Assembly (NCBI GenBank): GCA_040081795.1
Contig: JBEBFV010000001.1
Coordinates: forward strand, 959 to 64,958
Direction of reading: 5' to 3'
Length of the DNA: 64,000 nt
DNA from: Limisphaerales bacterium
Lineage (GTDB): Bacteria > Verrucomicrobiota > Verrucomicrobiia > Limisphaerales > SXTU01
The notes under the pieces were generated by a model. The model worked only from the letters and a program-made list of their open reading frames with translations, was not told where the DNA came from and did no database searches. The stretch's first letter is position 1; each line of letters opens with the position of its first letter. Below are positions 7,281 through 61,372 of this stretch, in pieces. Both the position numbers and the translations under genes were made by a program.

Positions 7281-8501
7281 TCTGAAAAGCTCACCCTGAA
7301 AGAAGCCCGCGACCTCGCCCTCCGCCAGCACCCGCGCATTACCGCCGCCGAGTTCAAAGCCCTCGCCGCGAAGCAGGCCGTCCTCCAAACCCGCGCCGCG
7401 CTCCTGCCCGCCTTCAGCCTGAACGCCGTTGCGGTCGGCGCGGCGGACCCGAATACACGCCTGACTGCCGGTGGCGGCTTGAACAACCCCACCGTCATCG
7501 AGCGCGCCGCCGGCGGCCTCTCCATCAGCCAGCTCATCACCGACTTCGGCCGCACCGACAACCTGCTCGGTGGCGCGAAGGACAAGGCCCGTGCCGAAGA
7601 AGCCAGCACCGACACCGCGCGCGCCCAGCTCCTCCTCGCCGTGAGTGCGACGTATTTCAGTGCGCAACAGGCACAGTCCGTCCTGCGCGTCGTGGACCAG
7701 ACTGTCACCAACCGCCAGACCTTGCTCGACCAAGTCAGCGCGCTGGCGAAAAACCAGTTGAAGTCCGACCTCGACGTGAGCTTCGCCCGCGTGTCGCTGG
7801 AGGAGGCGCGCCTCCTGCAACTCCGCGCCCGCAACGACCTCGACGCCAGCTTCACCTCTCTCGACACGCTGCTCGGTGGCCGCGAGCCGCGCCGTTACGA
7901 CCTCGTGGAGGAAGTCCTGCCCGCCGACCTGCCCAACGATTCCTCGCCGCTCGTGGCCGACGCGTTGCGGTTGCGTCCCGAACTGGCGCGCCTCCGCGCC
8001 GAGCGGGACGGGGCGCTGAAGCTGGCGCGTGCCGACAAGGCCCTGCACTATCCGACTCTCAGCGCGCTCGCCGGCGTCGGCTACACGCCCGTCCACGACA
8101 CGCGCCTGGAAGACACTTACGCCTCCGCCGGTCTCGTCCTGAGCCTCCCGCTCTTCAGCGGCGGACGCGACACCGCCCGCCAGAAGGAAGCCGAGCTGAA
8201 AGCCAAGGCCGCCGAGGAAGGGCTGAAGGACGAGGAGAACAACGTCATCCGCGATGTGCGGCTCGCCTTGCTGCGCGCGCAGCACGCCCACGAACGCCTC
8301 GCCCTCACCGCGAAGCTCCTCGCCCACGCCCGGACCGCGAACGACCTCGCCGTCGCCCGCTACAAGCTCGGAGCCAGCAGCATCACCGAACTCAATCAGG
8401 CCCAGCTCAACCTCACCGCCGCCGAAATCACCCAGGCCACGGCAAAATTCGACTATCTTCTCCAGCGTGCGGTTTTGGATTTCCAGTGCGGCCTGAATTG
8501 A
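7209..8501 (+). CDS. TolC-family outer membrane efflux protein
   Basis: The mature part LTLKEARDLALRQHPRI.. with coiled-coil/beta-barrel repeat halves is typical of OEP/TolC. The ORF-track start 7056 lies in the repeat element. In-frame GTG 7209 would give a signal-peptide-like VFRLCSLVLGAWCLFGAWSLELGA. The start remains uncertain. Confidence 0.8.
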   Translation: MFRLCSLVLGAWCLFGAWSLELGASEKLTLKEARDLALRQHPRITAAEFKALAAKQAVLQTRAALLPAFSLNAVAVGAADPNTRLTAGGGLNNPTVIERAAGGLSISQLITDFGRTDNLLGGAKDKARAEEASTDTARAQLLLAVSATYFSAQQAQSVLRVVDQTVTNRQTLLDQVSALAKNQLKSDLDVSFARVSLEEARLLQLRARNDLDASFTSLDTLLGGREPRRYDLVEEVLPADLPNDSSPLVADALRLRPELARLRAERDGALKLARADKALHYPTLSALAGVGYTPVHDTRLEDTYASAGLVLSLPLFSGGRDTARQKEAELKAKAAEEGLKDEENNVIRDVRLALLRAQHAHERLALTAKLLAHARTANDLAVARYKLGASSITELNQAQLNLTAAEITQATAKFDYLLQRAVLDFQCGLN

Positions 8502-46213: not shown

Positions 46214-47158
46214 ATGCCCTTCGACCGGGACGCACTAAAGCAGCGCCTTACCGCGCTGGCGGCCAGGAACATGTTCATTGGCACGTCGTCCTGGAAATAC
46301 CCTGGCTGGAAGGGGCTGCTCTACGACGAGGCGCGCTACGTGTATCGGGGCAAGTTCGCCGAGACCCGGTTCGAGCGGCTGTGCTTGGCCGAATATGCGG
46401 AGGTGTTCAAGACCGTGTGTGTGGATGCCGCCTACTACAGCTTCCCGTCAGAGACGTATCTGGCCGGACTGGCGGCTCAGGTGCCCGCCGATTTCCGCTT
46501 CACCTTCAAGGTCACGGACGACATCACACTGAAGCACTTCCCGAATCTCGCACGCTTCGGCAAGCGGGCGGGCCAGCCCAACCCGCACTTCCTCGATGCC
46601 GACCTGTTTGAGCGGGCCTTCCTGCGGCCCTGCGGGACACTGCTGCCCAAGGTGGGCATGCTCATCTTCGAGTTTTCCAAGTTCTACGCGGCGGACTACG
46701 AGCATGGCCGGGACTTCATCACGGCGCTCGACAAGTTCCTTGGCCGGATTCCCCCGGAGTGGTGCTATGGCGTTGAGCTGCGAAACCGGCATTGGTTGGT
46801 GCCCGAATACTTTGCCATGCTGGCCAGCCACGGCGTCGCGCACGTCTTCAACTCCTGGGCCGACATGCCGGTGGTGTCAGCGCAGATGGCCCTGCCCGGC
46901 TGCGTGACCAATCCGCAGCTCGTCGGTGCGCGCTTCCTGCTGAAGCCGGGCCGGAAATATCAGGAAGCGGTGGACATGTTTAGCCCCTACAACCGCGTGC
47001 AGGAGCCAAACCCGGAGGCCCGCGCCGCAGGTGCCAGGCTCATCGCGGACGGTGCGGCGGCTGGCGAGGCGCGCAAGACGCTGATCTACGTCAATAATCG
47101 GCTGGAGGGGAATGCGCTGGAGACCATCAGCGCAATGGTGGATGAATCAGGAGTCTAG
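46214..47158 (+). CDS. DUF72 (YecE-like) family protein
   Basis: FIGTSSWKYPGWKGLLY.. and the overall 314-aa pattern are typical of DUF72. Confidence 0.8.
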   Translation: MPFDRDALKQRLTALAARNMFIGTSSWKYPGWKGLLYDEARYVYRGKFAETRFERLCLAEYAEVFKTVCVDAAYYSFPSETYLAGLAAQVPADFRFTFKVTDDITLKHFPNLARFGKRAGQPNPHFLDADLFERAFLRPCGTLLPKVGMLIFEFSKFYAADYEHGRDFITALDKFLGRIPPEWCYGVELRNRHWLVPEYFAMLASHGVAHVFNSWADMPVVSAQMALPGCVTNPQLVGARFLLKPGRKYQEAVDMFSPYNRVQEPNPEARAAGARLIADGAAAGEARKTLIYVNNRLEGNALETISAMVDESGV

Positions 47159-47183
47159 CTGGCCTTGAGCCGCAGCGTCTCAC
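47102..47183. repeat. Direct repeat: DUF72 3' end / convergent junction, copy 1
   Basis: CTGGAGGGGAATGCGCTGGAGACCATCAGCGCAATGGTGGATGAATCAGGAGTCTAGCTGGCCTTGAGCCGCAGCG is alignable with 48074-48154. Confidence 0.6.
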
Positions 47184-47189
47184 CCGTCT

Positions 47190-47498
47190 TCAGGATAACT
47201 TTTCCTCTGCCCACTCACACGGTGCTGTTGGGCTGTCAGCGGGCAACAGAAACCGAAAGGTGACGGAATACCGACCCGCCACGAGCTGCTGGATCTCGTG
47301 AGCCAAGGCCCGGCCAGTTTCGTTGTAGCTCCGCCGGTCGAAGTCAGGTGGTGCGTCGTCGTGTTCACGATAGCGCACCAGCCAGGCATCGAAGCGGGCG
47401 CACAGATCCTCCGAAGCGCCCAGTTCCTTCGGGCCGAGTCCGCCCTCCGGCAGGAACAGCCCACAGATGTAATCAGCCATGACGATGAGTTTCTTCAC
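47190..47498 (-). CDS. Hypothetical 102-aa protein
   Basis: ORF with a 4-nt overlap to the upstream 109-aa ORF. No family recognised. Confidence 0.4.
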   Translation of the reverse strand: MKKLIVMADYICGLFLPEGGLGPKELGASEDLCARFDAWLVRYREHDDAPPDFDRRSYNETGRALAHEIQQLVAGRYSVTFRFLLPADSPTAPCEWAEEKLS

Positions 47499-47824
47499 GG
47501 GGGAGATGTGGCAACGTCCAGAGTCCCAAATTCTACCGCTTGGTTGGCTTTGCGGAGTCTGCGGCGGAGTCGTTCGTTAGTGTTGGGTGTTGCCGCTGTC
47601 TGGCGGCCTTCCGGCCCGCAGTATTCGCCGCTCGCCTCTGGTGGATACAACGCCGGCAGGGCCAGACAGCGACGACGGATCGCTTCAAGTTCGGGGTGGC
47701 CGATAGGAGACGCCGTGAAGTTGTCCCAAGCGCTCGCACTGCACTTGGCATACGCCATCGCCTGGACGATGCCGCCAACATCAAGCTGGCTCAGTCGTGG
47801 TTTCGGGTGACGCTTCTTCATCAT
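47495..47824 (-). CDS. Hypothetical 109-aa protein
   Basis: ORF coupled to 47190..47498. Confidence 0.4.
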   Translation of the reverse strand: MMKKRHPKPRLSQLDVGGIVQAMAYAKCSASAWDNFTASPIGHPELEAIRRRCLALPALYPPEASGEYCGPEGRQTAATPNTNERLRRRLRKANQAVEFGTLDVATSPP

Positions 47825-48073
47825 TGCTCAGAGTGCGCGTAACGGCACGCAACGCTTGGCAAGTTGAAACACGACACCATCTCCGTCAACCATCGGCTAG
47901 GGTAGTGCCTCCGTTTTGAATCCTGAGCGGAGAAACCCGTCTGGCGTGTCTCGTTGGAGGTAACAAACGGCAGAACCAAGCGCGGACTCGCCGCACGCCG
48001 CCAGACGGGAGAGTGGACGCGGAAGGTTTAGCAACCGGAAACCGGAGAGGCCAAGTTCAAATTGGGACACTGC

Positions 48074-48154
48074 CTTGGAGGGGAATGCACTCGAAATCAT
48101 CACCGCGATGGTGGAGGAAGCGGAAGTCTAACGGACCTTGAGCCGCACTCGCAG
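48074..48154. repeat. Direct repeat: orphan DUF72 3' end (..LEGNALEIITAMVEEAEV*) / junction, copy 2
   Basis: See 47102-47183. It overlaps the 3' end of the minus-strand gene 48128..48907. Confidence 0.6.
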
Positions 48155-48907
48155 AAGCAAGTCATTCAGCGCGGCCCGCGTGTCCTCGCCGGGCAGCTCT
48201 GGCAACTGGCTCTGGTCATGCGCCGCCTGAAGTTCGCCGCGCAGCCGCTGGTATTCCGACTCGTGGAACGCGATGTCCGCATCCTCCAGCTTCGACTTCT
48301 CCGGCCCAGCCAGCTTGCGCGCCACCAACTCGGCGAGGTAGGGCAGCCGGAACGCCTCGTTCAGCGTGACCAGATTCGCCTCCACCACGCCGGTCCGCAT
48401 CAGGTGAATGCCCGTGAGCAGGACGCGATACACGTAGAGCAGCGGCTTCACCCTGCGCGGCGATTCCTTGAGGAACAGTTTCCACTGCGTCTCCGCGAAG
48501 CCGAAGTAGTGATGCGAGTGATGCTCCGTGATGCAGCCAGGCGCGATGGCCTTCAACTCCGCGTGCTCCGGCGTCGTGTGGACGATGAGGGGCGAGAACA
48601 ACTGCTCCAGGACGTAGCCGTTCTTCTTGAGCAGCAGGCCAAAGAACTTCCGCACGTCATGGCTCACAATGTCCATCTCCAGCCCTTCAATGACGCGGGC
48701 CTCCTGCACCGTCTCGTCGCGCACGTCCAAGCCGATGATCTTGTCGAGCGGCAGCACATGCGCGCCGCGCAGGTCAAAGTCCGAGTCCGGCGACGGAAAC
48801 CCGTAGAGGTGCGCGCCGCTGATGGTAGCGAACAGCAGCGGATACGGCTGGTCCGCTACGATGCGGTGCAGGCGCGGGTCAATGGTCATGGGCATCACGG
48901 TGCTCAC
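48128..48907 (-). CDS. RlaP-like nucleotidyltransferase (RNA-repair-associated pol-beta superfamily)
   Basis: PYPLLFATISGAHLYGFPSPDSDFDLRGAHV.. is an NTase G-[SG]..D.D pattern. 259 aa. The start overlaps the pnkp stop. Confidence 0.65.
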   Translation of the reverse strand: MSTVMPMTIDPRLHRIVADQPYPLLFATISGAHLYGFPSPDSDFDLRGAHVLPLDKIIGLDVRDETVQEARVIEGLEMDIVSHDVRKFFGLLLKKNGYVLEQLFSPLIVHTTPEHAELKAIAPGCITEHHSHHYFGFAETQWKLFLKESPRRVKPLLYVYRVLLTGIHLMRTGVVEANLVTLNEAFRLPYLAELVARKLAGPEKSKLEDADIAFHESEYQRLRGELQAAHDQSQLPELPGEDTRAALNDLLLRVRLKVR

Positions 48908-51456
48908 AGTCGCGGGTCCACCGGCTCACTCTCCATGGCCAGCACGCCGAAGACGCACTCGTGGACACGCCGCAGCGGCTCGCCACGCGTGAACCGCTCC
49001 AACGCCTCGACCCCCAGCGCGAACTCCCGCAGGGCGAGCGAGCGCTTCGCGTTCAGTCCGCGTGAGCGCAGCCGCTCCAGGTTTTCGGGGGCGGTGTATT
49101 CCGGGCCGTAGATGATGCGCAGGTATTCCCGACCCCGGCATTTGACCGCCGGTTGGATCAGCCCCCGCTTGCCGCGCACCACAAAGTCAAGCGGCTTCAC
49201 CACCATGCCTTCACCACCGAGCGCCGTGAGTTCCTCCCACCAACGGACGGCGGCGGCCTCGCTGTCGGGGTTGGTCACCTCGACGACTTGAAAGGGCGTG
49301 GCGATGAGGATGCCACCGGCCAGCCGCGCCAGAGTCTGCATGTGCCAGTCGTTGGGTTTGTCCACGTGGACCTTGCCCTCCGTTGCCAGCAGGTGGAAGG
49401 GAGCGAGCTTGAGGTCGTCCACCGAGTTCACCGGCCAGCAGTAGCGACGGTAGGAGGCGACATAGTCGGCAGCCATTTCACGCCGGGCACCGGTGCGGAG
49501 AAGCAGGTCGCCCACGTCCAGGCCACGGCCATCGGCTTGCTTCAGCAGCCCGACTGCGTCGCCTAGCATCGCCCCGGCGGATGCGCCCACCGGGGCGTAT
49601 TGCTCTTTCAGCAACCCCTGAGCCTTCGCCGACCACGGCATCAGCTCGCAGTCGAGGCAGGCCCAGTCGGTTTGGAACTCGTCCCAGAACCCGGCCCGCG
49701 TCACCGCGTCGCGCACATGTTCGAGGAAGCCGGTTTCCATGACCGTGTCGTCAAAGAACCGCCGACCCGTGCGCGTGTAGCAGACGCCGAAGCCCTCACC
49801 CGTAACGCCGAAGCGTTTTCTCGCCACATCCTCATCACGGCAGACAATCACGACGGCGCGTGAACCCATGTGCTTCTCCTCGCAGACCACGCGGGGCACG
49901 CCTTCATGGCGGTAGTAGGCGAACGCCTCCGCAGGATGCTCCAGCAAACCGGGCTGCTGGCTCGTGCCACTGGGCGACATCGTGGGCGGCAGGTAAATCA
50001 GCCACTTCGGATTTGTGGCGAAGCGGCTCATCACCTCCAGCGCGGCGGTGGCGTTCTCCTCCCGGATGGTCACGTTCCCGTGCAGGCGCGTGCTGACGAT
50101 GCGCTTGCCCATCACGTCGGCGAGGTCGAGCAAGTCGTCGTGCTGCTGCTGCGCGGACAAGGTCGGTGCCTGAGCTTCTGGCAGGAGAAACGGTTTGCGC
50201 GGCTCGGCGTAAGTCTGTTTGGCGGCAACCGAGACCAGTTCCCGCTCCGGATACCGCAGCGCCGTGAGCTTCCCGCCGAAGACGCAGCCGGTGTCGATGT
50301 TGAGGGTGCGGTTCAGCCACTCCGGCTCTGGCACCGGCGTGTGCCCATAGACTACCGCCGCCGAGCCGCGATACTCGGCGGCCCAGTTGTAGCGCACCGG
50401 CAGACCAAACTCGTCCGTCTCGCCCGTGGTCTCGCCGAACAGGGCGAACTCTCGCACCGCCCCGGAGCCGCGCCCCTGCATGGATTCCTTCATGCCCGCG
50501 TGGGCGACCACCAGCTTGCCGTCGTCGAGCACGTAATGGCTCACGAGCGAGTCAATGAACTCCGCCGCGACGCGACTGAACCCCCGGTAGTGCTGCTCGT
50601 AGGCTTCAAACTGGGCCAGCGTCTCCGCCAGCCCGTGCGTGATTTGCACGTCCTTGCCCCAGACCTTGCGCATGAACTTCATGTCGTGGTTGCCCGGCAC
50701 GCACAGCGCGCTGCCGAACTTCACGCTGTCCATCACGAGCCGCACGACTTCGGGCACCTTCGGTCCGCGGTCCACCAGGTCGCCCACGAAGACGAGCTTG
50801 CGGCCTGCCGGGTGATGCCACGCGCCCGCGCTCTGCCCCGTTTCATAGCCCAGCTTCGCCAGCAGCTCGACCAGCTCATCGAGGCACCCATGCACATCGC
50901 CGATGAGGTCAAACGGGCCGTGCTCGTGCTTCAGGTTGTTCCAAAGCGGCTCACGCACGATCTCGACCGTCTCGATTTCCTCCAGCGACTTGAGCACATG
51001 CACATGGCGAAAACCTTCGCGCTCCAGCCCGCGCAGCGACTGGTGCAGTTGCGTGGCCTGCTGCCGAATGACGTGCGGCCCGAAGTTGCGGTCGGGCCGG
51101 GTCTGGTTGCGCTCGTGCGCGACGCGCTCCGGCACGTCGAGCACGATGGCCACGGGCAGGCAGTGGAACTCCCGTGCGAGCTGCACCAGCGGCTTGCGCG
51201 CCTCCGGCTGGACGTTGGTGGCGTCCACCACCGTGAGCTTGCCCGCTGCGAGCCGCTTGCGTGCAATGAAGTGGAGCACGTCAAACGCGTCCTTCGTCGC
51301 CGCCTGGCTGTTCTCTTCATCGGACACCAGCCCGCGACAGTAGTCCGAGGAAAGCACCTCCGTCGGCTTGAAGTGCCGCCGCGCAAACGTGCTCTTGCCA
51401 GAGCCGGACACGCCGACCAGCACGACGAGGGAGAGTTCGGGGACGGTGAGTTTCAT
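48904..51456 (-). CDS. pnkp: Polynucleotide kinase-phosphatase-ligase (bacterial Pnkp)
   Basis: Kinase P-loop LVGVSGSGKSTF. Metallophosphoesterase motifs GDVHGC, GDLVDRG and GNHD. A C-terminal adenylyltransferase-like region has CEEKHMGSRAV. 850 aa. Confidence 0.9.
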   Translation of the reverse strand: MKLTVPELSLVVLVGVSGSGKSTFARRHFKPTEVLSSDYCRGLVSDEENSQAATKDAFDVLHFIARKRLAAGKLTVVDATNVQPEARKPLVQLAREFHCLPVAIVLDVPERVAHERNQTRPDRNFGPHVIRQQATQLHQSLRGLEREGFRHVHVLKSLEEIETVEIVREPLWNNLKHEHGPFDLIGDVHGCLDELVELLAKLGYETGQSAGAWHHPAGRKLVFVGDLVDRGPKVPEVVRLVMDSVKFGSALCVPGNHDMKFMRKVWGKDVQITHGLAETLAQFEAYEQHYRGFSRVAAEFIDSLVSHYVLDDGKLVVAHAGMKESMQGRGSGAVREFALFGETTGETDEFGLPVRYNWAAEYRGSAAVVYGHTPVPEPEWLNRTLNIDTGCVFGGKLTALRYPERELVSVAAKQTYAEPRKPFLLPEAQAPTLSAQQQHDDLLDLADVMGKRIVSTRLHGNVTIREENATAALEVMSRFATNPKWLIYLPPTMSPSGTSQQPGLLEHPAEAFAYYRHEGVPRVVCEEKHMGSRAVVIVCRDEDVARKRFGVTGEGFGVCYTRTGRRFFDDTVMETGFLEHVRDAVTRAGFWDEFQTDWACLDCELMPWSAKAQGLLKEQYAPVGASAGAMLGDAVGLLKQADGRGLDVGDLLLRTGARREMAADYVASYRRYCWPVNSVDDLKLAPFHLLATEGKVHVDKPNDWHMQTLARLAGGILIATPFQVVEVTNPDSEAAAVRWWEELTALGGEGMVVKPLDFVVRGKRGLIQPAVKCRGREYLRIIYGPEYTAPENLERLRSRGLNAKRSLALREFALGVEALERFTRGEPLRRVHECVFGVLAMESEPVDPRL

Positions 51457-51621
51457 TGTCGGCTGCCGCCGTGCGCTACAGGTCTTGCACCTGCCCGACC
51501 CCCATCATCCTGCCTTTGGCCCGTTCGGGCGGGGGGGCATGCTGCTTTTGCGTCAGGCTCGCTTACATCAAGCGCACGGCTAGCTTGAGACTACGGGTTT
51601 AGAGCCTTCGTGTGCAATCCA

Positions 51622-53922
51622 CTACGGCTGGGGCTTCAGAAGTTTCTCCGCACTGGCAGTCATTTCAACAGCGTGCTGTCTGCGATTCTCCATGGCCTCA
51701 TTGCTCTGCGGCACTGGCAACTGTTGCAGGCCTGCCAGCCACTCTTTGATGAACCGAATGAACACCTCGGTGTGCGTGCAAGCTTGTTTGATGAAGTGCT
51801 CCCAGTTCTTCAAAACGCGTGCGCTCACCGCGTTGTGAATCGCTTCAAGCGAGTTGTGAACACCACTTTGAAGGTGCCCGCGCATCCGTGCTGCGCATCC
51901 AGTGCCCCCCTCGCCTCCGATAAGACTGAACGCTGGCGATAGAATTTCCCGAATCTCAGGCGTAAGCCTCGCACGTAAAGATTCGTAGTCGTCCGTGCTC
52001 TTGCGAAAATCCTCTCGTAAGGCCTTTAGTTGAAGCGTCGCTTTCGTTCCGAAGTCTGCCATGCGCTCGTCCACGAACCGCACGGTGGCCGGGTCTTGGG
52101 CCAAAGCGAAGCCCCTCGCCTCCTGGATAATCTTCTCAATGGAGTGTATCAACTCGTCCAGTTTAGTGCCGCAGATGATTTCGATAAGCCGGTCACGGTC
52201 TTGCACCCAAGTCGCTCTGAGCTGCTCGCAATAAATTTCAGCCAAGTCCCCTTGAATGTGATACTCACGTCCATCATACGTCGTGTGCCATCCGCGCTTT
52301 GAGCCAAGCGCCCTCATCGTCCTCCAGTGCAATCCGGTCCACACTTCCATCCTCCATCGCAGCGGATTCTGGAATCCGCGTTGCGCGTGCATCAGGATTT
52401 CCGCTGCCTTCTGGTGAAAGCTTGACTCGATTTGTCCGAGTAACCGCTCACTGTCGTCGGTTTCAACGAGGAACTGCGTGACACCGGCCTCAACGTGTTT
52501 TGCAATTTCACGGTAAGCTTCGGCTTGGCCGGCCAAGCCGAGTTCAGCTCCCATCCTCTGGCGGCGAAAAAAGTCGATGACCGAACCCACCTCGCTTTCC
52601 AGGTGGCTTTGCATTCGCCTGAGAAAATGAGTGCTCAAATACTGCTCCGTGGATTCTTGAAGCACACGTCGCATCTTCGGGATGCCAGTCTTCTCCGTGT
52701 CCTCGTCGAAGCGAAGGAAACGAGACATCATTTCCAGATTTGCAGGTTTGTAGGGATTATCCCGCACCCTAGTTCGCAGCCCTCGGTCGCTGAGTTGCCG
52801 AAAAGTTTTGGCAGATACAAAATGCACCGGCATCGAGTTCACGAACTCATCGAGGCGAGCGACGAGTTTGGCGTCAGCGAACTTGTCGCGCACTAACTGA
52901 CGTAACTGTCGTCGAAAATGGGCTTCCTGCTCTCGACAGTGGGCCTCAAGAAACGGCCATGTTGATGGTGCGTCTTCCGGGACGTTTTCTAAAGGCTGCT
53001 CGTCAATGACCGTGCGAACCACCATCACTCGCTGCTGGTTTCGCTCGGTGCTCTCAGCGATTTCCGACAGGATGGAAGTCTGCTTGAACCACTCCATGAC
53101 ATCGCTGCCCAACTGAGTGCCTTTCGTAATCAGCATCAATCCAGCAACTTTACTTTGGGCCTGCTCGGTGACTTCCGTCCTAAACGGGTCGATGTCGTTG
53201 GTTCCGGGCATGTCGATGAGTTCCATCTGTGGTGCCCACTCAGGAAACCGCCCTTCCAGAACGCACTCCTCGACAACGAATGCCTTCTTGCCCTGCGCTG
53301 CCAGGTGCTCTGCAACCGCCGCGTCGTCCTCGACAGCGATTTCACGGCTCGCTCCAAATTCGTCAAAAGTGATGCCTTCGGGACGAACGAGGCATTGCTT
53401 GCAGAACTCCACTATCTGAGCTGGGGAGCGGTCACGGATTCCAAAGAAGCCGATAAATCTACCGAGCGCCTTTCGGATTTCCTCGCCCGCAGTCGCGGCA
53501 GACTCCTCGCCAGAGAGCGCCGTTTCAGCATCCTTGAGTCCGTCTTTGAGCTTCGACAGGAAATCCTCTTGAGAAACGTAGCGCACCGTCATCCTGTAAC
53601 CGTCAATTTCCAGGTAGCGACACCGCACCACGGCGGCGGAACACGCTCCAACATGGCCTTCCGTGAGAATCTTCCGACCCAAGAGCACGTTGACGAGAGT
53701 GCTCTTGCCATTCTGCGAGCTACCCAGCAGGTGAATCGCAAAGCGAGGCTCGTCTTTGAGTTCTGCCCGGAGAGCGTTCAACCGCTCGACTCGCTCTTTG
53801 AAGAATTTCGTCGTCTCTGGCGATGCGAAGTAGGCTTCCGCCTTCGGTCGAAGTTCAGCCGAGATGGCGTGAATTGCGTTCTCGGCTATTGCCAGCAACT
53901 CGATGGTTGAAGTTTTCGGCAT
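51622..53922 (-). CDS. Dynamin-family large GTPase-like protein
   Basis: G1 is LLGSSQNGKSTLVNVLLG and G3 is LIDMPGTND. A long helical C-terminal region follows. 766 aa. Confidence 0.65.
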   Translation of the reverse strand: MPKTSTIELLAIAENAIHAISAELRPKAEAYFASPETTKFFKERVERLNALRAELKDEPRFAIHLLGSSQNGKSTLVNVLLGRKILTEGHVGACSAAVVRCRYLEIDGYRMTVRYVSQEDFLSKLKDGLKDAETALSGEESAATAGEEIRKALGRFIGFFGIRDRSPAQIVEFCKQCLVRPEGITFDEFGASREIAVEDDAAVAEHLAAQGKKAFVVEECVLEGRFPEWAPQMELIDMPGTNDIDPFRTEVTEQAQSKVAGLMLITKGTQLGSDVMEWFKQTSILSEIAESTERNQQRVMVVRTVIDEQPLENVPEDAPSTWPFLEAHCREQEAHFRRQLRQLVRDKFADAKLVARLDEFVNSMPVHFVSAKTFRQLSDRGLRTRVRDNPYKPANLEMMSRFLRFDEDTEKTGIPKMRRVLQESTEQYLSTHFLRRMQSHLESEVGSVIDFFRRQRMGAELGLAGQAEAYREIAKHVEAGVTQFLVETDDSERLLGQIESSFHQKAAEILMHAQRGFQNPLRWRMEVWTGLHWRTMRALGSKRGWHTTYDGREYHIQGDLAEIYCEQLRATWVQDRDRLIEIICGTKLDELIHSIEKIIQEARGFALAQDPATVRFVDERMADFGTKATLQLKALREDFRKSTDDYESLRARLTPEIREILSPAFSLIGGEGGTGCAARMRGHLQSGVHNSLEAIHNAVSARVLKNWEHFIKQACTHTEVFIRFIKEWLAGLQQLPVPQSNEAMENRRQHAVEMTASAEKLLKPQP

Positions 53923-53961
53923 GGTTGAAACCCTATTTTACTTCTCGATTCGCGTCGAGAA

Positions 53962-55380
53962 TTACGAACCCCCACGCGTCCGCTCGAACACCCCCATCTG
54001 CGTCGGTGAGCCGACGGTCGCATCCTCCGGCCCGACTGGCAGAAACCGCACCGCGTAGCCGAAGCGGGCGGCGATGCCGTTGGCCCACCCCTGAAACTCC
54101 GCACGCGTCCACTCGAAGCGGTGGTCGCGGTGGCGGAACTTGCCCGCCGGAAGGGTCTCCCATTTCACGTTGTATTCGCGGTTGGGCGTGGTGAGCACCA
54201 CGGTGCCGGGCCGGGCGAACTCGAAGAGCACGCGCTCGAACGCCGCCAGGCGCGGCGGGTCGAGGTGTTCAACGACCTCGACGACAGCAGCGGCATCGAA
54301 GCCGGCCAGCCGCTCGTCCCGATACATGAGCGAGCCGTGCAGGAGCTTGAGTCGCTCCTTTTGCAGCGCGGGCAGGCGGTCGTAGTGCAGGTTCTCCACC
54401 GCCATCTCCAGCACGCGATGCGACACGTCCAGCCCGACGATGCGCGTGAACTGGCGTTCCTTGAGCAGCATGCGCAGCAGCTTTCCTTCGCCGCAGCCGA
54501 GGTCGAGCACGGAGGTTGCGCCAGCGGCCTTGAGCACGGCGAGCACGGTCCCGAGGCGCTGCTCGTTCAGACTCAGGGCACGCTCGACGGTCGCCTCCTC
54601 CTGAGCTTGGGCCTCCGCAGTGTCGTCGGGATGCGGGTCGCTCTCGTCCACGAGCTGGGCGAGCGCGTCCGTGACGAGGCTGCGCTGGTGCTTCAGGTAG
54701 CGGCGCGTGATGGCGTCACGTTCGGGATGCGCGGCGAGCCAGCCTTCGCCGTGGCGCAGGAGCTTGCTCACTTCGTCGTCGCCGACCCAATAGTGCTTGT
54801 CGTTGTCGAGCACCGGCACGAGCACGTAGAGGTGGCTGAGGAACTGGTGCAGCGGGAGCGTGGCCTCCAGCTCGACGCGGTGATAAGCGCTCTCGCCCCA
54901 GGCCGGGAAGGTTTCGTCGAGTGGCAGTCGCGTGGCACTGACACGATAGCCGAGCGGCTCAAAGAGCTTGCGCAGGAATTCCTCGCCCCCTCGACAGGGC
55001 AACGCGGGAAGTTGGACGCGCAGTGGCAGCGGCGTCTGGGACAGTCCCGGATGGTCTTTGCACTCCGTGCCCGACAGCGCGCTGCCGAAGACCTCCGCGA
55101 TGGCCACGCTGAGGAACGACGAGGCGGCGTAGGGCCGGTCGTTGACGTATTGCTCCAGCAAGCCGCCCTCACCGGACGGGCCGCGCCGCTTGCGCACGAG
55201 TCCCACCGGGTCCACCTCCACGAGCAGCGCCACCGAGCAGCGTTCCTCGCCCGCTTCGGGATAGAAGACATGGGCGTTGCCGAACGTGAGTTCAAACGAC
55301 TGCGAGCGCGCCGGGTTCTTGCGGAGCAAGTAGCCCAAGTCCGTCGCGGGACGGTGCGTGGTCGTCAAGGTGAGTAGCAT
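53962..55380 (-). CDS. hen1: Bacterial Hen1 RNA 3'-terminal 2'-O-methyltransferase
   Basis: The N-terminus MLLTLTTTHRPATDLGYLLRKNP is typical of bacterial Hen1. The C-terminal SAM motif is VLDLGCGEGKLL. 472 aa. Confidence 0.88.
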   Translation of the reverse strand: MLLTLTTTHRPATDLGYLLRKNPARSQSFELTFGNAHVFYPEAGEERCSVALLVEVDPVGLVRKRRGPSGEGGLLEQYVNDRPYAASSFLSVAIAEVFGSALSGTECKDHPGLSQTPLPLRVQLPALPCRGGEEFLRKLFEPLGYRVSATRLPLDETFPAWGESAYHRVELEATLPLHQFLSHLYVLVPVLDNDKHYWVGDDEVSKLLRHGEGWLAAHPERDAITRRYLKHQRSLVTDALAQLVDESDPHPDDTAEAQAQEEATVERALSLNEQRLGTVLAVLKAAGATSVLDLGCGEGKLLRMLLKERQFTRIVGLDVSHRVLEMAVENLHYDRLPALQKERLKLLHGSLMYRDERLAGFDAAAVVEVVEHLDPPRLAAFERVLFEFARPGTVVLTTPNREYNVKWETLPAGKFRHRDHRFEWTRAEFQGWANGIAARFGYAVRFLPVGPEDATVGSPTQMGVFERTRGGS

Positions 55381-55407
55381 GGGAGGAAGCTATTGAGTTC
55401 CTGGTGC

Positions 55408-56337
55408 CTAGCCAGCCATCTCACGCCGAGCCTTGAGGAGGAAAAGGTTAGCCGACTCGTAGTCGGGGCGTTCGGGCAGTTTGGTCTCCGCTAGGGCGCG
55501 CTCAAAGTCCCGGTGGAGTTCCTGTCGCCATGCGTCCACGTCGGCCCAAGGCATCTCGCCGCGCTTGACCACAAGCAGTCGGTCGCGGTGGGCCTCGACG
55601 CGCACAGGGACGCGGGCCTCACGCAACGTGGCCGCGCCGGTGAGCAGCAGGCGCAGCAGGTGCATGGCGTGCTTCCATCGCACCGCGCCCTGGTTGCGGA
55701 TGTCCTGCTCGATCTTCTTGAACTGCGACATGGCGTAGCCGTTGAAGGTCTGGAAAATCATCTGGCTGAGGAAGCCTTGGCGCAGGGCCACCAGCTCCGC
55801 GCCCAACGGCGTGGCCTTTTCGACCAGCGGCGAATAGAGGCACTCCAGGATGTTGGGGTTGGCCTTGAGCGCCATGGTCAGGAACTTCTGCAATTCCCAG
55901 TAGCAGCTCTGCGAGGCGTTGTCCTCGAACTGCTCCGGCGCACCGAACAGCGACCATTGCAGGTCGGCGGGCGCAAGGTAGATGCCGCGCTGGTCGGTGT
56001 CGGAGTCGTCCTGGTCCAGCCCGTAGGCACGCGACCCGACGACGCAGCGGTAGATGATGAACTGTTCGAGGTCGAAGTCCGCCGTCGCCCCGCCGTCACC
56101 GAGGCGATCCTTGAAGTGCTTCAGGACTTCGAGCTGCGAGCGCTCCAGTGATTTCTCGAAGCCGTCGGGGAAGCGGACAAGGAACTGCACCTGATCGCCC
56201 GTAGGTGTGCGGGTGACGACCCCGACCGCGCCACGCGGATGGACAAGCGAGTTGTTCGTCCCCCGCACTTCCACCAGCGACACGACCTGCGTGCCCGCGA
56301 AGATGTTGTTGGGTTGATGTGACACAAGGCACCTCAT
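55408..56337 (-). CDS. RlaP-like nucleotidyltransferase, first gene of the RNA-repair operon
   Basis: VVGSRAYGLDQDDSDTDQRGIYLAP..YWELQKFLTMALKANPNILECLYSP matches the RNA-repair-pathway pol-beta family pattern. 309 aa. Confidence 0.7.
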   Translation of the reverse strand: MRCLVSHQPNNIFAGTQVVSLVEVRGTNNSLVHPRGAVGVVTRTPTGDQVQFLVRFPDGFEKSLERSQLEVLKHFKDRLGDGGATADFDLEQFIIYRCVVGSRAYGLDQDDSDTDQRGIYLAPADLQWSLFGAPEQFEDNASQSCYWELQKFLTMALKANPNILECLYSPLVEKATPLGAELVALRQGFLSQMIFQTFNGYAMSQFKKIEQDIRNQGAVRWKHAMHLLRLLLTGAATLREARVPVRVEAHRDRLLVVKRGEMPWADVDAWRQELHRDFERALAETKLPERPDYESANLFLLKARREMAG

Positions 56338-56376
56338 CTCAGAAGGGCTTGGGCTTTCTCTCCGATTCCAACCCGC

Positions 56377-56392
56377 CTGTCAAACTTGACAG
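56377..56392. promoter_or_regulatory. Candidate SOS box CTGTCAAACTTGACAG (CTGT-N8-ACAG, perfect palindrome)
   Basis: Located in the 88-bp divergent region between the RNA-repair operon (start 56337) and lexA (start 56426). Confidence 0.5.
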
Positions 56393-56406
56393 CCGCATCC
56401 TCTGGC

Positions 56407-56424
56407 ACTACTCAAGCGAGTAGT
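56407..56424. promoter_or_regulatory. Second palindrome ACTACTC-AAGC-GAGTAGT abutting the lexA start
   Basis: Perfect 7-4-7 inverted repeat ending 2 nt before ATG 56426. Confidence 0.35.
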
Positions 56425-56425
56425 A

Positions 56426-57046
56426 ATGGCCAAACTCACCAAACGACAGCAGCAGGTCCTCAGCTTCATCCAGTCGGCGCAGCAGCGCGGCCACGCCGTG
56501 CCCACCCTGCGGGAGATTGCCGCCCACTTCGGCTTCGCCAGCACGCGGGCCGCCGCCGACCACCTGGCCGCACTCAAACGCAAGAGCATGCTCGCCTCCA
56601 CTCCCGGCCAGGCGCGCTCGCTGCGCGTCATCACGCCCCTGCAAGCCCTGCGCAGGCTGGTGGTGGACATCCCGGTCTATGGCTCAATCCCCGCCGGGTT
56701 CGCCGACGACCGCAAGCAGGAGGCCAAGGGCTGCGTCTCCATTGACATCGAGACGCTGGGCATCAAGCCAACACCGCGCACCTTCGCGCTCGAAGTCCGG
56801 GGTGAGTCCATGGTCGGCAAACACATCATGGACGGCGACCTTGTGGTGCTGGAACACGGCATGACCCCGCGCCACGGCGACGTGGTGGCCGCGCTCATCG
56901 ACAACGAGAGCACGCTCAAGACGTTTCAGTTGAACCGGGGCAAGCCCTTCCTCCACGCCGAGAACCCCAAGTTCCCCGACCTCATCCCGGCGCAGGAGCT
57001 GGTCATTCAGGGGGTGATGGTGGCGCTCATCCGAAAGCGGAAATGA
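56426..57046 (+). CDS. lexA: LexA repressor
   Basis: Winged HTH (PTLREIAAHFGFASTRAAADHLAALKRKSML), an Ala-Gly cleavage site (SIPAGF), Ser (GESMVG) and Lys (LIRKRK). 206 aa. Confidence 0.9.
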   Translation: MAKLTKRQQQVLSFIQSAQQRGHAVPTLREIAAHFGFASTRAAADHLAALKRKSMLASTPGQARSLRVITPLQALRRLVVDIPVYGSIPAGFADDRKQEAKGCVSIDIETLGIKPTPRTFALEVRGESMVGKHIMDGDLVVLEHGMTPRHGDVVAALIDNESTLKTFQLNRGKPFLHAENPKFPDLIPAQELVIQGVMVALIRKRK

Positions 57047-57052
57047 CTCCCA

Positions 57053-60000
57053 GTGCCCCGCGTCATCGTTCATCTCGATGCCGACGCCTTCTTTGCGTCG
57101 GTGGAACAGGCGTCCGACACGCGCCTGCGTGGCAAGCCGGTCGCCGTCGGTGGTGAGAAGCGCGGCATCATCGCCTCTGCCAGCTATGAGGCCCGCAAGT
57201 TCGGCGTCTTCACGCCCATGCCCACCGTGCGGGCGCGCAAGCTCTGTCCCCAGCTCATCGTCCTGCCCGGCGACTTCGACAAGTATGAGCACTTCTCCCG
57301 GTGGATGTTCAGCTACGCGCAGGACTTCACTCCCGATGTCGAGATTGCGAGCATCGACGAGGGCTACTTCGACCTGAGCGCCGTGCGGAAGCCGCCGCTG
57401 AACGTGGCCGAGACCATCCGCACGGCCATCCGGCAGTCACTCAAGATTTCGGTCAGCGAGGGCATCGCCAGCAACAAGCTCGTCAGTCAGATTGCCTCCA
57501 AGCTGTCCAAGCCTGCCGCGTTCAGGGAGGTGCCCGCCGGGTTGGAAGTCCGCTTCATCCATCCGCTGCCCAACAAGTGGCTGCCCGGTGTCGGCCCCGC
57601 GACCGCGCAGCGGCTCGACGCCGCCGGGTTGGCCTGCATCCGCCACGTCGCGGCCACGCCCACGGACATGCTGCACCTGCTGGTGGGCAACCTGGCCCCG
57701 ACGCTCAAGGCGCACGCGGACGGCATTGACGAGCGCCCGGTGCTGCCGATGAGCGCCCCGGCCAAGTCCTACAGCCAGCAGCAGACCTTCGAGGTGGACC
57801 TCACGGACGAGGAGTTTGCCGAGGCGGTCCTCCGGCGCATGGCTGACGACCTGATGGCCAAGGTGCGGTCGGATGGCAAGAGCATCCGCACCCTCACCGT
57901 CAAGGTGCGCTACAACGACATGGGCGAGGACCAGTGTGGTGAGAGCCTGCTCGAACCGACCGACCTCGAAACGGATGTCTACGGCCGCTTGCACATCCTC
58001 TTCCGGCAGGCGTGGAAGCGGCGCGTCAGCCTGCGCCTCGTCTCCCTGAAGCTGTCGAATGTGTATGACGGCCTCTTCCGCGCTGAACTCGCCCTCGAAC
58101 GGTCAGCGGAGCAGCACGAGGCCCGGCGACGCTTGGCTGGCATCGTGGATGAGCTGCGCCGCGCACGCGGTCGTGACGTGGTGCTGCGCGGCCATGACTT
58201 CCGGTTGCGTGAGGCTCCGATGGACACGGCGAAGTTTCTGGAGCAGCAGAGCGCGCCGCGTGTGGTCGTGCGCGTGCCGGTGCGCCGAGTCACGCCGACC
58301 AGCTACGTGCCGCTGTCTGTTCACAGCGCCTACTCGTTCCTGAACTCGACGCTCAAGGTGGACGCCCTCGTGGCGCTGGCGAAGCGGCGCGGCCTCTCCG
58401 CCATCGCCCTCACGGACACCGGCAACCTGCACGGCGCGGTGGAGTTCACGCAGGCGGCCAAGCAGGCGGGCATCAAACCCATCCTCGGTGCGACGGTAAT
58501 GGTGGAGGGCCAGCTCGCCCGGCTCTACGTCCAGACTGCGACCGGCTACCAGAACCTCTGCCGCCTGCTCACGACGACCACGCCGCACGCGGAGTCCGAG
58601 GACGACCCCACCGAGCCGCGCCACGTTCACCTGCGTCTGTCACAGCTTGATGGCCTGAACGCCGGACTGCTCGCCGTCGGCGCGGACACGCGGCTGTCCT
58701 CCGTGTTCGATGACCGCTTCTGCCGGGCCGTCTCCAGCTTGGACGAGGCGAAGGCGGCCAGCAGTGCGCGGTGCGTGGCCGTGATGCCGGTTCACTACGC
58801 CGAGCGTGACGACCGTTGGCAGTGGAACATCGTGCAGAGCATCCGCACGCGCACGCTGCTGCGGCAGACGCATCCGGGGAAGCTACTCGATGGTGACTTC
58901 CACCTGCGGACCCCTGCGGAGATGACGGCCCTGTTCCGTGACTTCCCCGATGTCGTCGCCAACACGCTGGAGCTGGCCGAGCGTTGCCCGTTCGAGTTGC
59001 CGCTCGGTGCGCCGCAGTTCCCGGCATTCAAGCCGGAGGATGGCTCCACGCCCCGCGCTTACCTGCGGAAACTCGTGCTGGAAGGACTGCGCCGCCGTTA
59101 CCGTGACCGGGCGGATGCCATGCACGCGCAGGTGGACGAGGAGCTGGGCATCATCGCGGAGGTCGGCTACGAGGCCTACTTCCTCGTCGTCTGGGACATC
59201 CTGCAAGCGTGTCGGCAGCACGGCATCGAGTGGATTACCCGTGGCAGCGCGGCGGACTCGCTCGTGTGCTACTGCCTGGGCATCTCGGACGTGTGCCCCA
59301 TCCGGTTCGATCTCTACTTCAAGAGGTTCCTGAACAAGGAGCGCATGGCCATGAACAAGCTCCCGGACATCGACATTGATTTCGCGCACGACCGGAAGGA
59401 CGACGTGGTGGACCTCATCTTCGCCAAGTATGGCGCGGCGCACGCGGCGGTCGTGGGCGGCTTCTCGACTTTTCAGGCCCGCAGTGCCTTTGCCGAAATC
59501 GCCAAGGTGCTCGGTGTCGGGGAACGGGAGGTGCGCAAGTTCACCGACCACTTCCCCTGGAGCTTCGGCGGCGGCTGGGTGCCCAATGAGCCGACGCCCA
59601 GTGGCGGCACGGGCCTGATTGAGATGCTCAAGGCCAGCCCGGAGAACCGTGACCTACCCTTCGAGGAGGAGCCTTACCGGACGGCGCTGCTCATGGCCGA
59701 GTTCCTCGACGGGATGCCGCGCTACCCGAAGATGCACCCGTGCGGCGTGGTGCTCTCGTGCCAGCCGATGACGGAGCTGACGCCCACGTTCACCTCGAAC
59801 AAGGGACGCCCCACGACGCACTTCGACATGGACGCGGTCGAGGCCATCGGGCTGGTGAAGATTGACGTGCTGGCCCAGGGCGGGCTGGCCGCGATGCGGG
59901 ACGCCAGAGAGTCGTTGGCCCGGCGTGGCATCGAGGTTGACCTCGCCGGACTGGAGCCGTGGCAGGACAAGAACGTCTGGGAGATGCTGGCCAGCGGTGG

Positions 60001-61372
60001 AGGCCGGGCGGTGCATCACATCGAGTCACCGGCGATGATTGGCCTGAGCCGCCAGTGCAACGTGCGCGACATCGACGGTCTCGTAGCCATCGTCAGCGTC
60101 ATCCGGCCCGGCGCGGCCAACGAGGGCAAGAAGCAGTCGTTTGCCCGGCGGTATCAGGGCCTGGAGCCGGTCGTGTATCCGCACCCGTCACTGGAGGCGT
60201 GCCTCAAGAGCACGTTCGGGCTGGTCGTGTATGAGGAGCACATCCTGCAACTGTGCGAGGCCTTCGCCGGGCTGCCACCGGGCCGCGCCGACGTGTTGCG
60301 CCGGGCGCTGTCCAAATACAAGGCACCGCTCATAGAGACCATCCGCCAGGAGTTCTTCGCCTGCGCCAAGGCACGCGGCCACGAAGACGAGAAGATGGTT
60401 GAGGTCTGGCGGCTAGTGACCGGCTTCAGCGGCTACGCGTTCTGCAAGGCGCACAGCACGGCCTACGGGGTCGAGGCGTATCAGAGCGCGTGGCTGAAGC
60501 GCTACCACCCGGTTGAGTTCATGGCGGGCGTGCTGACCAACGGGAAGGGGTTCTATCACCCGCTGGTCTATGTCCTAGAGTGTCACCGGCTCGGCATCAC
60601 GTTGCTGCCACCGTGCGTGACCAGTCCCGGCCCGCAGTTCTCCGTCGAGGGCCAGTCCATCCGCGTGCCGCTGACCCGCGTGAAGGGACTTACCGGGCGC
60701 ACGACCGAACGCATCCTCGATGAGCATGGCCGGAGCGTGTTCACGTCCATGTCCGACTTCTACCGGCGCGTGCTGCCCACGCCCGACGAGCTGGAGGCGA
60801 TGATTCGGGTGGGTGCGTTCGACATCTTCGGCAAGACGCGCACGGCGCAGTTCTGGGAGTCCCGTCATCTTCACCACGCCTTCGGGGACAGCGGCACGAG
60901 CGCGCCGGGCCAGGGCTGGCTCCTGCCCCCACCCGCGACCGACCGGCTGCCTGCGGTGCCGTTGCAGGAGCCGACACGTCGCCAGCGGCTTGAGTGGGAG
61001 GCAGAGCTGCTCGACTTCACGGCCAGCGGCCATCCCCTCGAACTCCACGACCACATCGCGTGGGGCACCTACTGCCCGGTGAACCGGCTCGGCGAGCACA
61101 TCGGCCAGCAGGTCGTCGTGTGCGGCCTCATCATCGAGCAGCGCGTCCACCACCAAGTCACCGGCGAGCCGATGAAGTTCCTGACGCTCGCCGACTGGAC
61201 GGGCATGGTGGAGACGGAACTCTTCGCGCCAACGTATCGGAGCTATGGGCTGGCGACCGTGCGCTACCCCGTGCTCGCAATCACCGCGACCGTGGAGCCG
61301 TTCGAGAATGGCCGAGGCTTCTCCCTGCGCGTGCTGCACGCGGGCAAGCCTCGTCAGGGACACCAGCACTGA
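57053..61372 (+). CDS. dnaE2: Fusion protein: DinB-type Y-family polymerase (N-terminus) + DnaE2 error-prone Pol III alpha (C-terminus)
   Basis: One uninterrupted 1439-aa ORF. The first ~390 aa carry the Pol IV motifs LDADAFFASVEQ and SIDEGYFDLS. From ~aa 410 comes a PHP domain (LSVHSAYSFLNST..LTDTGNLHGAVEF), then GYEAYFLVVWDI, LPDIDIDFAH and the rest of a DnaE-type alpha subunit. Confidence 0.85.
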   Translation: MPRVIVHLDADAFFASVEQASDTRLRGKPVAVGGEKRGIIASASYEARKFGVFTPMPTVRARKLCPQLIVLPGDFDKYEHFSRWMFSYAQDFTPDVEIASIDEGYFDLSAVRKPPLNVAETIRTAIRQSLKISVSEGIASNKLVSQIASKLSKPAAFREVPAGLEVRFIHPLPNKWLPGVGPATAQRLDAAGLACIRHVAATPTDMLHLLVGNLAPTLKAHADGIDERPVLPMSAPAKSYSQQQTFEVDLTDEEFAEAVLRRMADDLMAKVRSDGKSIRTLTVKVRYNDMGEDQCGESLLEPTDLETDVYGRLHILFRQAWKRRVSLRLVSLKLSNVYDGLFRAELALERSAEQHEARRRLAGIVDELRRARGRDVVLRGHDFRLREAPMDTAKFLEQQSAPRVVVRVPVRRVTPTSYVPLSVHSAYSFLNSTLKVDALVALAKRRGLSAIALTDTGNLHGAVEFTQAAKQAGIKPILGATVMVEGQLARLYVQTATGYQNLCRLLTTTTPHAESEDDPTEPRHVHLRLSQLDGLNAGLLAVGADTRLSSVFDDRFCRAVSSLDEAKAASSARCVAVMPVHYAERDDRWQWNIVQSIRTRTLLRQTHPGKLLDGDFHLRTPAEMTALFRDFPDVVANTLELAERCPFELPLGAPQFPAFKPEDGSTPRAYLRKLVLEGLRRRYRDRADAMHAQVDEELGIIAEVGYEAYFLVVWDILQACRQHGIEWITRGSAADSLVCYCLGISDVCPIRFDLYFKRFLNKERMAMNKLPDIDIDFAHDRKDDVVDLIFAKYGAAHAAVVGGFSTFQARSAFAEIAKVLGVGEREVRKFTDHFPWSFGGGWVPNEPTPSGGTGLIEMLKASPENRDLPFEEEPYRTALLMAEFLDGMPRYPKMHPCGVVLSCQPMTELTPTFTSNKGRPTTHFDMDAVEAIGLVKIDVLAQGGLAAMRDARESLARRGIEVDLAGLEPWQDKNVWEMLASGGGRAVHHIESPAMIGLSRQCNVRDIDGLVAIVSVIRPGAANEGKKQSFARRYQGLEPVVYPHPSLEACLKSTFGLVVYEEHILQLCEAFAGLPPGRADVLRRALSKYKAPLIETIRQEFFACAKARGHEDEKMVEVWRLVTGFSGYAFCKAHSTAYGVEAYQSAWLKRYHPVEFMAGVLTNGKGFYHPLVYVLECHRLGITLLPPCVTSPGPQFSVEGQSIRVPLTRVKGLTGRTTERILDEHGRSVFTSMSDFYRRVLPTPDELEAMIRVGAFDIFGKTRTAQFWESRHLHHAFGDSGTSAPGQGWLLPPPATDRLPAVPLQEPTRRQRLEWEAELLDFTASGHPLELHDHIAWGTYCPVNRLGEHIGQQVVVCGLIIEQRVHHQVTGEPMKFLTLADWTGMVETELFAPTYRSYGLATVRYPVLAITATVEPFENGRGFSLRVLHAGKPRQGHQH

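Follow-up and report, generated by a model that had tools for sequence, protein, structure and literature searches.

A dynamin-like GTPase gene as probable defense cargo in the hen1-pnkp junction of a verrucomicrobial RNA-repair operon

Pnkp heals and seals RNA cut by ribotoxins, and Hen1 carries out 2'-OH methylation at the repair junction. Here we describe a cluster encoding both proteins in a Limisphaerales bacterium, analyzed within a stretch of 64,000 nt (assembly GCA_040081795.1, contig JBEBFV010000001.1, positions 959-64,958, forward strand; hereafter the window), in which a gene encoding a dynamin-like GTPase stands between hen1 and pnkp. A first-pass annotation, made from the letters of the sequence, had read the cluster as an RNA-repair operon expanded by this GTPase and bracketed by two RlaP-type nucleotidyltransferase genes.

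The open reading frame (ORF) listing of the window contains five head-to-tail ORFs on the minus strand and bears out the coordinates and gap sizes of that annotation. The first gene of the cluster (55408-56337, minus strand) encodes a 309-aa protein of the Pol-beta nucleotidyltransferase type, which matches the RlaP family (PF10127, cut-off 23 bits) over residues 94-301 (E 1.1e-42, 146.9 bits) and carries an N-terminal extension of about 90 aa. It is followed after 27 nt by hen1 (53962-55380, minus strand), encoding a 472-aa RNA 3'-terminal 2'-O-methyltransferase (TIGR04074, 720.6 bits, cut-off 340) with a Hen1_L domain at residues 1-243 (375 bits) and methyltransferase domains at residues 276-433. 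The 766-aa GTPase is encoded 39 nt further on (spacer 53923-53961; gene 51622-53922, minus strand), and 165 nt beyond it (51457-51621) lies pnkp (48904-51456, minus strand), encoding an 850-aa polynucleotide kinase-phosphatase-ligase (TIGR04075, 1435 bits, cut-off 750) built of AAA_33 kinase (residues 10-139), Metallophos (181-376), and PNKP_ligase (471-845) domains. The last gene (48128-48907, minus strand), whose start and the pnkp stop share 4 nt (48904-48907), encodes the second RlaP protein (259 aa; PF10127, E 2e-54, 185.3 bits), placing RlaP-type genes at both ends of the cluster, as had been proposed. By family searches, the identities of Pnkp, Hen1, and both RlaP proteins are beyond doubt.

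These repair genes are of already known kinds. As in other Pnkp/Hen1 systems, Pnkp possesses kinase, phosphatase, and ligase domains, Hen1 combines a ligase-activating N-terminal region with a methyltransferase domain, and the two genes are co-directional, with hen1 preceding pnkp. Unlike in the usual Pnkp/Hen1 loci, they do not abut in the window but are separated by 2,505 nt, with the GTPase gene between them and no terminator-like site in the interval. RlaP adds one or two nucleoside monophosphates to RNA 3' ends, an activity known for the Pseudomonas enzymes only, and RlaP genes are known to accompany RNA ligase operons (PMC12776372). In our reading, the cluster is an ordinary RlaP-Hen1-Pnkp-RlaP RNA-repair operon, in which lost 3' nucleotides would be replaced by RlaP, the ends healed and sealed by Pnkp, and the junction 2'-O-methylated by Hen1.

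The 766-aa protein belongs to the dynamin superfamily by both sequence and fold, and the family searches, the structure-profile search, and the AlphaFold/Foldseek comparison together confirm the earlier assignment and speak against any other NTPase family. Its Dynamin_N match (38.4 bits) exceeds the gathering score of 27, and its G1 (GSSQNGKST, residues 67-75) and G3 (DMPG, residues 237-240) motifs are conserved: in an alignment of 29 sequences, G72, K73, S74, and T75 are nearly invariant, and D237, P239, and G240 are invariant. A candidate G4 motif (T304-V-I-D307, with T304 nearly invariant and D307 invariant) and a candidate switch I region (G89-H-V-G-A-C-S95) were assigned by eye. A helical region at residues 526-690 gives a sub-threshold match to DUF7605 (23.9 bits), and among the 29 family members Dynamin_N is found in all and DUF7605 in 24 (best E 2.4e-14). 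When the family profile was compared with solved structures, the bacterial dynamin-like protein BDLP (2j68) ranked first (1.3e-8). The AlphaFold model (pLDDT 81.8, pTM 0.71) finds its top Foldseek matches in the Protein Data Bank exclusively within the dynamin superfamily, namely SynDLP (2.4e-13), BDLP (3e-12), IniA, the Campylobacter dynamin-like protein (DLP) pair, and mitofusins, with LeoA (4aur, 7e-6) also among them. Like BDLP of Nostoc, SynDLP, IniA, and mitofusin, the protein has a helix pair before the GTPase domain followed by long helical bundles, at identities of 11-14% and TM-scores of 0.3-0.5.

In contrast to the BDLP-type dynamins, the protein has no recognizable hydrophobic paddle or transmembrane segment, and its family resides in defense operons and not among genes of envelope functions. 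No hydrophobic segment was found along the whole protein, the maximum 19-residue mean Kyte-Doolittle hydropathy being 1.04, and its action on membranes is therefore uncertain; the sole candidate membrane element is a weakly hydrophobic, glycine-rich, conserved loop at residues 660-684. The membrane-remodeling role suggested in the first-pass annotation thus gained no direct support. One could still regard the protein as a housekeeping dynamin of the BDLP, DynA, or IniA type that remodels or repairs membranes and came into the operon by chance, since its best fold matches (BDLP, SynDLP, IniA, and the Campylobacter pair) are membrane-active proteins. We consider this improbable: besides the missing hydrophobic segment, the gene is foreign in composition, its distribution is patchy (33 close clusters in 5.8 billion proteins), the nearest relative of the operon carries other cargo at the same position, and the neighbors of the family are typical of defense islands and not of the cell envelope.

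The composition of the gene sets it apart from the rest of the operon. In a 300-nt profile, GC content drops to 0.52-0.58 exactly across the GTPase gene, compared with 0.65-0.69 on both sides; the gene has an overall GC of 0.554 and a third-codon-position GC (GC3) of 0.638, while the GC3 of its four neighbors is 0.855, 0.858, 0.852, and 0.881. Homologs on other contigs show a GC of 0.51-0.59 independently of their context. The gene was most likely acquired recently by horizontal transfer.

The inserted gene also appears to bring its own upstream region. Directly after the hen1 stop codon lies a 39-nt leader (53923-53961, minus strand; TTCTCGACGC...AATAGGGTTTCAACC-ATG), and motifs of an approximately 38-nt leader (TTCTCGACGC ... 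GAATAGG.TTT) precede the ATG in the window and in five homolog contigs (designated L010, L011, L005, L098, and L101; such L numbers denote comparison loci throughout). The leader is kept in L011, L005, L098, and L101, where contexts or spacers differ, and because it is common to differing contexts, the gene may well travel with upstream signals of its own, which hints at a promoter that is itself unproven. For the independent promoter that the first-pass annotation had named as a point against its reading, the conserved leader is a hint. A sigma-70 scan of 47500-57000 gave no site, which in a verrucomicrobial genome neither supports nor excludes an internal promoter. The 165-nt spacer that separates the GTPase gene from pnkp (51457-51621, minus strand) recurs in L010 but not in L011, which has a 51-nt spacer, or in L005; it folds no better than shuffled sequences (z = 0.02), and no Rfam match at E <= 0.1 was found in 47000-57500, this spacer included. 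A terminator scan of 47500-57000 returned three sites on both strands compared with 8.2 expected in shuffles, and the only one on the minus strand is a consensus-matching hairpin after the last RlaP gene (47980-47996); none lies between the genes of the cluster. As first described, the GTPase gene sits inside the co-directional cluster, and it would be expressed with the operon and possibly also from its own leader.

We compared the locus with others by scanning one genome per species with the Pnkp of the window as query and taking the best 80 of 596 relatives; tblastn with the five window proteins located both hen1 and pnkp in 74 of these loci. All 74 carry the two genes on one strand with hen1 upstream, and the gap between them is at most 150 nt in 49, 150-400 nt in three, and more than 400 nt in 22, which agrees with the statement that the two genes are normally adjacent. 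The junction is thus occupied in approximately 30% of the loci. The ORFs in the long gaps are on the same strand as their neighbors, and their GC is below that of hen1 and pnkp in 22 of 22 loci.

At least 10 unrelated families make up the content of this junction. An orthologous HEAT-repeat protein is found in L012, L018, L033 (Nostoc), and L071 (Alcaligenaceae), and a larger HEAT protein in L044; other loci hold an AAA_33 kinase with a Thg1-like enzyme (L013), an AAA_15 ATPase with DUF3226 (L019), a leucine-rich repeat (LRR) protein (L041), an ADP-ribosylglycohydrolase with two RlaP genes (L042), RlaP pairs (L026, L036, and L044), DUF4291 (L059), or a MazE/AbrB-like protein (L045, Pfam MazE_antitoxin, with near-identical ORFs in L039, L049, and L051). 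The occupants of L016, L025, L065, and L075 have no family match, and that of L014 gives a sub-threshold match to tetratricopeptide repeats (TPR). The two paralogous RlaP genes that flank hen1-pnkp in the window thus have counterparts between hen1 and pnkp in L026, L036, L042, and L044. Turnover is evident among close relatives: the ten Verrucomicrobia-type loci with Pnkp identities of 77-95%, the window counted, show six different contents, and in two further loci of this type (L020 and L057) the junction is empty. We conclude that the junction between hen1 and pnkp acts as a cargo slot with rapid turnover of content between related genomes and that the operon of the window is one state of a quickly changing site. 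In this, the slot behaves like the cargo sites within operons of bacteriophage exclusion (BREX) systems.

The nearest relative illustrates the exchange at nucleotide level. In L012, a contig of a Verrucomicrobiota metagenome-assembled genome (MAG; JAYUSF010000003.1), Hen1 is 98% and Pnkp 95% identical to the proteins of the window, and an orthologue of the upstream RlaP occupies the equivalent position (93%), as it does in L013 (82%) and L031. By blastn, L012 38-2130 matches window 56076-53984 at 92.6% and L012 3001-5723 matches window 51458-48787 at 90.3%. Between these blocks, a segment of 2,525 bp in the window (51459-53983, minus strand) faces 870 bp in L012 to which it has no similarity; the similarity breaks off 22 nt ahead of the hen1 stop and sets in again 2 nt ahead of the pnkp ATG. 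The slot of L012 encodes a 287-aa HEAT_2 protein (2143-3006), the ends of which overlap hen1 and pnkp. No remnant of the HEAT gene was found in the spacers or anywhere else in the window, and neither a transposase nor an integrase nor a flanking repeat lies with the insert there. The insertion of the GTPase gene probably displaced a HEAT-repeat gene like that of L012, the direction of the replacement being deduced from this comparison.

The HEAT-repeat occupant deserves attention in its own right. Orthologues of approximately 265-310 aa sit in the slot of L012 (2143-3006), L018 (606-1535), L033 (9207-10001), and L071 (9120-10004), that is, in Verrucomicrobiota, Nostoc, and an Alcaligenaceae MAG, and more distantly in Longimicrobium, with identities of 36-53% (E 1e-49 to 1e-103). 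This protein may be an unrecognized partner of Pnkp/Hen1. Beyond pnkp in L012 (5603-8712), there are four copies of the opening 100-120 nt of the downstream RlaP gene (at 5603, 6393, 7254, and 8384), separated by other ORFs, one of which (7405-8127) was noted by eye as a candidate IS200/RAYT-type transposase. These repeats point either to recurrent insertions at the gene's 5' end or to an artefact of mixed-strain assembly.

By tblastn, all 80 of the Pnkp loci in other genomes lack the GTPase gene. Searched from the other side, the GTPase has 33 close clusters in a collection of 5.8 billion proteins and 25 loci in a metagenome scan, and its homologs were inspected on about 45 contigs representing about 13 distinct contexts. 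Outside the window, only two of these contigs show hen1/pnkp flanks: L010 (GTPase identity 96%) and L011 (83%), both metagenome contigs shorter than 3 kb whose Pnkp N-termini are 96-98% identical to that of the window and which belong to its own lineage. The homolog in L005 (82%) is flanked by a tRNA_SAD gene on one side and by DUF5677/PIN genes on the other, and that in L098 (80%) has flanks without Hen1 or Pnkp. Linkage of the GTPase to pnkp/hen1 is therefore not conserved, which the first-pass annotation had named as a finding that would tell against it; it holds apart from the two short same-lineage contigs. Taken together with the homologs of 80-82% identity elsewhere and the GC3 of 0.64, it leaves the GTPase as a component of an expanded RNA-repair system without support.

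The contig L011 also permits a comparison of rates. Between window 51622-53922 and L011 131-2431, synonymous divergence (dS) of the GTPase gene is 1.05, approximately three-fold higher than in the adjacent pnkp codons 1-122 (0.375), and it equals the value between the window and L005, which is in another context. Recurrent capture or an exchange of alleles at the slot may explain this contrast, as may effects of codon bias and sample size alone, given 122 codons and a strong GC3 bias. Across four homologs, the ratio of nonsynonymous to synonymous divergence (dN/dS) of the GTPase gene is 0.08-0.13 and stays at about 0.1 even at dS above 1, and the reading frame is full length in the window, L010, and L011. 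By its low dN/dS and conserved nucleotide-binding motifs, the gene is intact, under purifying selection, and maintained.

This pattern makes it very improbable that the insert is decaying or selfish cargo without function for the cell. Such an explanation would accord with the recent acquisition and with one homolog (L096) that is split into a 198-aa and a following 502-aa ORF beside a resolvase gene; it conflicts with the full-length frame in three samples, with a dN/dS of about 0.1 even where dS exceeds 1, with the conserved GTPase motifs, and with the lack of a transposase, integrase, or flanking repeat at the insert in the window. Both this explanation and that of a housekeeping dynamin fit the data poorly.

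The usual homes of the GTPase family lie in defense contexts. A family profile search against 1.84 billion cluster representatives (clusters at 50% identity) recovered 194 clusters at E <= 1e-30, mostly 750-790 aa in length; the family, of about 760-790 aa, combines Dynamin_N with DUF7605. In L127, the gene is part of a complete type 1 BREX operon (BrxA-BrxB-BrxC-PglX-GTPase-SNF2-PglZ-BrxL), and the same core is present in L111, L112, L113, and L116, with L112 additionally embedding a KAP NTPase (PADLOC PDC-S20) and a GmrSD-like gene (HEC-05). In L092 to L095 and in contig P0025, the GTPase gene is directly 3' of BrxL. An Hma system in L004 has the order HmaB..HmaC-GTPase-HmaA-like, the last being an SNF2 helicase. 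Elsewhere, the gene follows a ResIII/RE_endonuc gene and has a methylase, a PLD gene, and a helicase in its vicinity (L002), adjoins SNF2 and DEAD helicases as well as conjugation genes (L001), is near an integrase (L006), or belongs to a small island with a KilA-N gene (L123). No relatives were found in PLSDB plasmids, INPHARED phages, or IMG/VR contigs. We also observed that the GTPase and SNF2 helicase genes form a cassette with 4-nt overlaps between PglX and PglZ (L127 8001-12940; L111, L112, L113, and L116), and that a GTPase-SNF2 cassette adjoins HmaC in the Hma system of L004.

The position of homologs between PglX and PglZ or after BrxL resembles that of BREX-embedded accessory genes; unlike such cargo, the gene in the window has an RNA-repair operon as its host, without any BREX gene or SNF2 partner. 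When BrxB, BrxC, PglX, SNF2, PglZ, and BrxL of L127 were searched against the whole window by tblastn, no match was obtained, and the GTPase alone of that locus matched.

Dynamin-like proteins have precedents in phage defense. The two-gene Eleos (Leo) system protects Bacillus from jumbo phages and needs the phosphate-binding motif of its GTPase (bioRxiv 10.1101/2022.05.11.491447), and DynA of Bacillus subtilis is reported to protect against phages (PMC8844932). Like these, the GTPase described here is a large GTPase of the dynamin superfamily found in defense islands, and LeoA is among its fold matches. Unlike Eleos, it is encoded by a single gene, being neither a pair nor a two-headed fusion, and its C-terminal region corresponds to DUF7605. 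No second dynamin-like gene was found near it in the window, and its matches to the PADLOC models of LeoA (E 6.9e-6) and LeoBC (E 9.6e-4) are weak, no stretch passing on its own; with a single gene and matches this weak, membership in Eleos was rejected.

We consider it probable that a dynamin-like module from defense islands, self-contained and assembling under GTP control, landed in the hen1-pnkp cargo slot. That the GTPase gene is cargo and not a core repair component is well supported, and from genomic context alone we infer that the protein acts in defense. In the lineage of the window, horizontal transfer would have brought into the slot a single-gene dynamin-like GTPase, which would work without Pnkp/Hen1 and, by analogy, in a manner akin to the two-gene phage-protection system and DynA.

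Several observations weigh against this interpretation. The hen1-GTPase-pnkp layout occurs in three samples (window, L010, and L011) with GTPase identity down to 83%, so the layout was either kept for some time or gained repeatedly in this lineage. No terminator-like site separates the GTPase gene from pnkp, so co-expression is likely. Some slot occupants, such as the RlaP pairs or the Thg1-like enzyme with its kinase, are plainly related to RNA repair; the slot is thus more than a dumping place for unrelated genes, and the GTPase may be functionally tied to repair. The window has neither a BREX gene nor the SNF2 partner, so a protein dependent on a partner would be orphaned there, yet the gene is under purifying selection; finally, the GTPase matches the LeoA and LeoBC models only weakly.

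The strongest competing explanation is that the GTPase is a true accessory subunit of Pnkp/Hen1 and that the slot encodes an interchangeable third partner (HEAT, LRR, TPR-like, Thg1-like, RlaP, or dynamin-like) that would target, regulate, or localize the repair enzyme, for example by linking repair to the sensing of infection or to the membrane. The shared strand without a terminator-like site, the layout in three samples, and purifying selection are consistent with it, as is the precedent of the HEAT protein, one orthologue of which fills the slot in four groups and overlaps both neighbors in L012, suggesting that slot genes can be real partners. We nevertheless regard it as unlikely, since the linkage is absent from 80 other Pnkp loci and from the other contexts of the GTPase, and homologs of 80-82% identity live without pnkp/hen1. 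The recurrent partners of the family (BREX, SNF2, and Hma) are moreover DNA-directed, and the GTPase gene, with its 39-nt and 165-nt spacers and its own leader, is not translationally coupled, unlike the HEAT gene. Cargo that acts in defense on its own therefore remains our preferred interpretation.

The surroundings of the operon offer some further observations. The gene lexA (56426-57046, plus strand) is transcribed divergently from the RNA-repair cluster and is followed after 6 nt by a 1,439-aa ORF (57053-61372, plus strand), in which a Y-family polymerase (IMS and IMS_C, residues 8-337) is fused to a DnaE2-type Pol III alpha subunit with PHP, DNA_pol3_alpha, finger, and HHH_6 domains; the two polymerase genes of mutagenesis cassettes are usually separate. 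The 88-nt intergenic region between the first RlaP gene and lexA contains two palindromes with perfect 7-nt arms, CTGTCAA-AC-TTGACAG (56377-56392) and ACTACTC-AAGC-GAGTAGT (56407-56424), the latter ending 1 nt before the lexA ATG. These palindromes could serve as operators for both lexA and the repair operon; no LexA box of the form TGTTC-N4-GAACA is present in the window. Past the downstream end of the cluster, two small minus-strand ORFs, 47190-47498 (102 aa) and 47495-47824 (109 aa), share 4 nt; neither matches a Pfam family, and they may form a toxin-antitoxin-like pair.

We found no paper linking dynamin to Pnkp/Hen1, in agreement with the first-pass annotation, which did not recognize such a GTPase as a described part of RNA repair, although an earlier mention in the survey of RNA-repair neighborhoods by Burroughs & Aravind (2016) is possible. 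Literature searches likewise returned nothing on DUF7605 or on dynamin with BREX/PglZ, including the GTPase-SNF2 cassette. There is a slim chance that the junction is a dedicated cassette site for interchangeable third components (repeat proteins of a sensor type, additional enzymes for RNA end repair, an ADP-ribosylglycohydrolase perhaps reversing ADP-ribosyl damage, and, in this lineage, the GTPase) and that the GTPase truly works with Pnkp/Hen1. If so, GTP-driven assembly could gate or localize repair during phage or toxin attack, and this would be the first link of the dynamin superfamily to RNA repair. It would be surprising to find a dynamin as a new component of RNA repair; the evidence favors the insertion of cargo, an ordinary event for conflict systems. 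This uncharacterized family of single-gene dynamin-like GTPases, found repeatedly inside BREX operons and often with SNF2, is a candidate for a new defense module or a BREX accessory.

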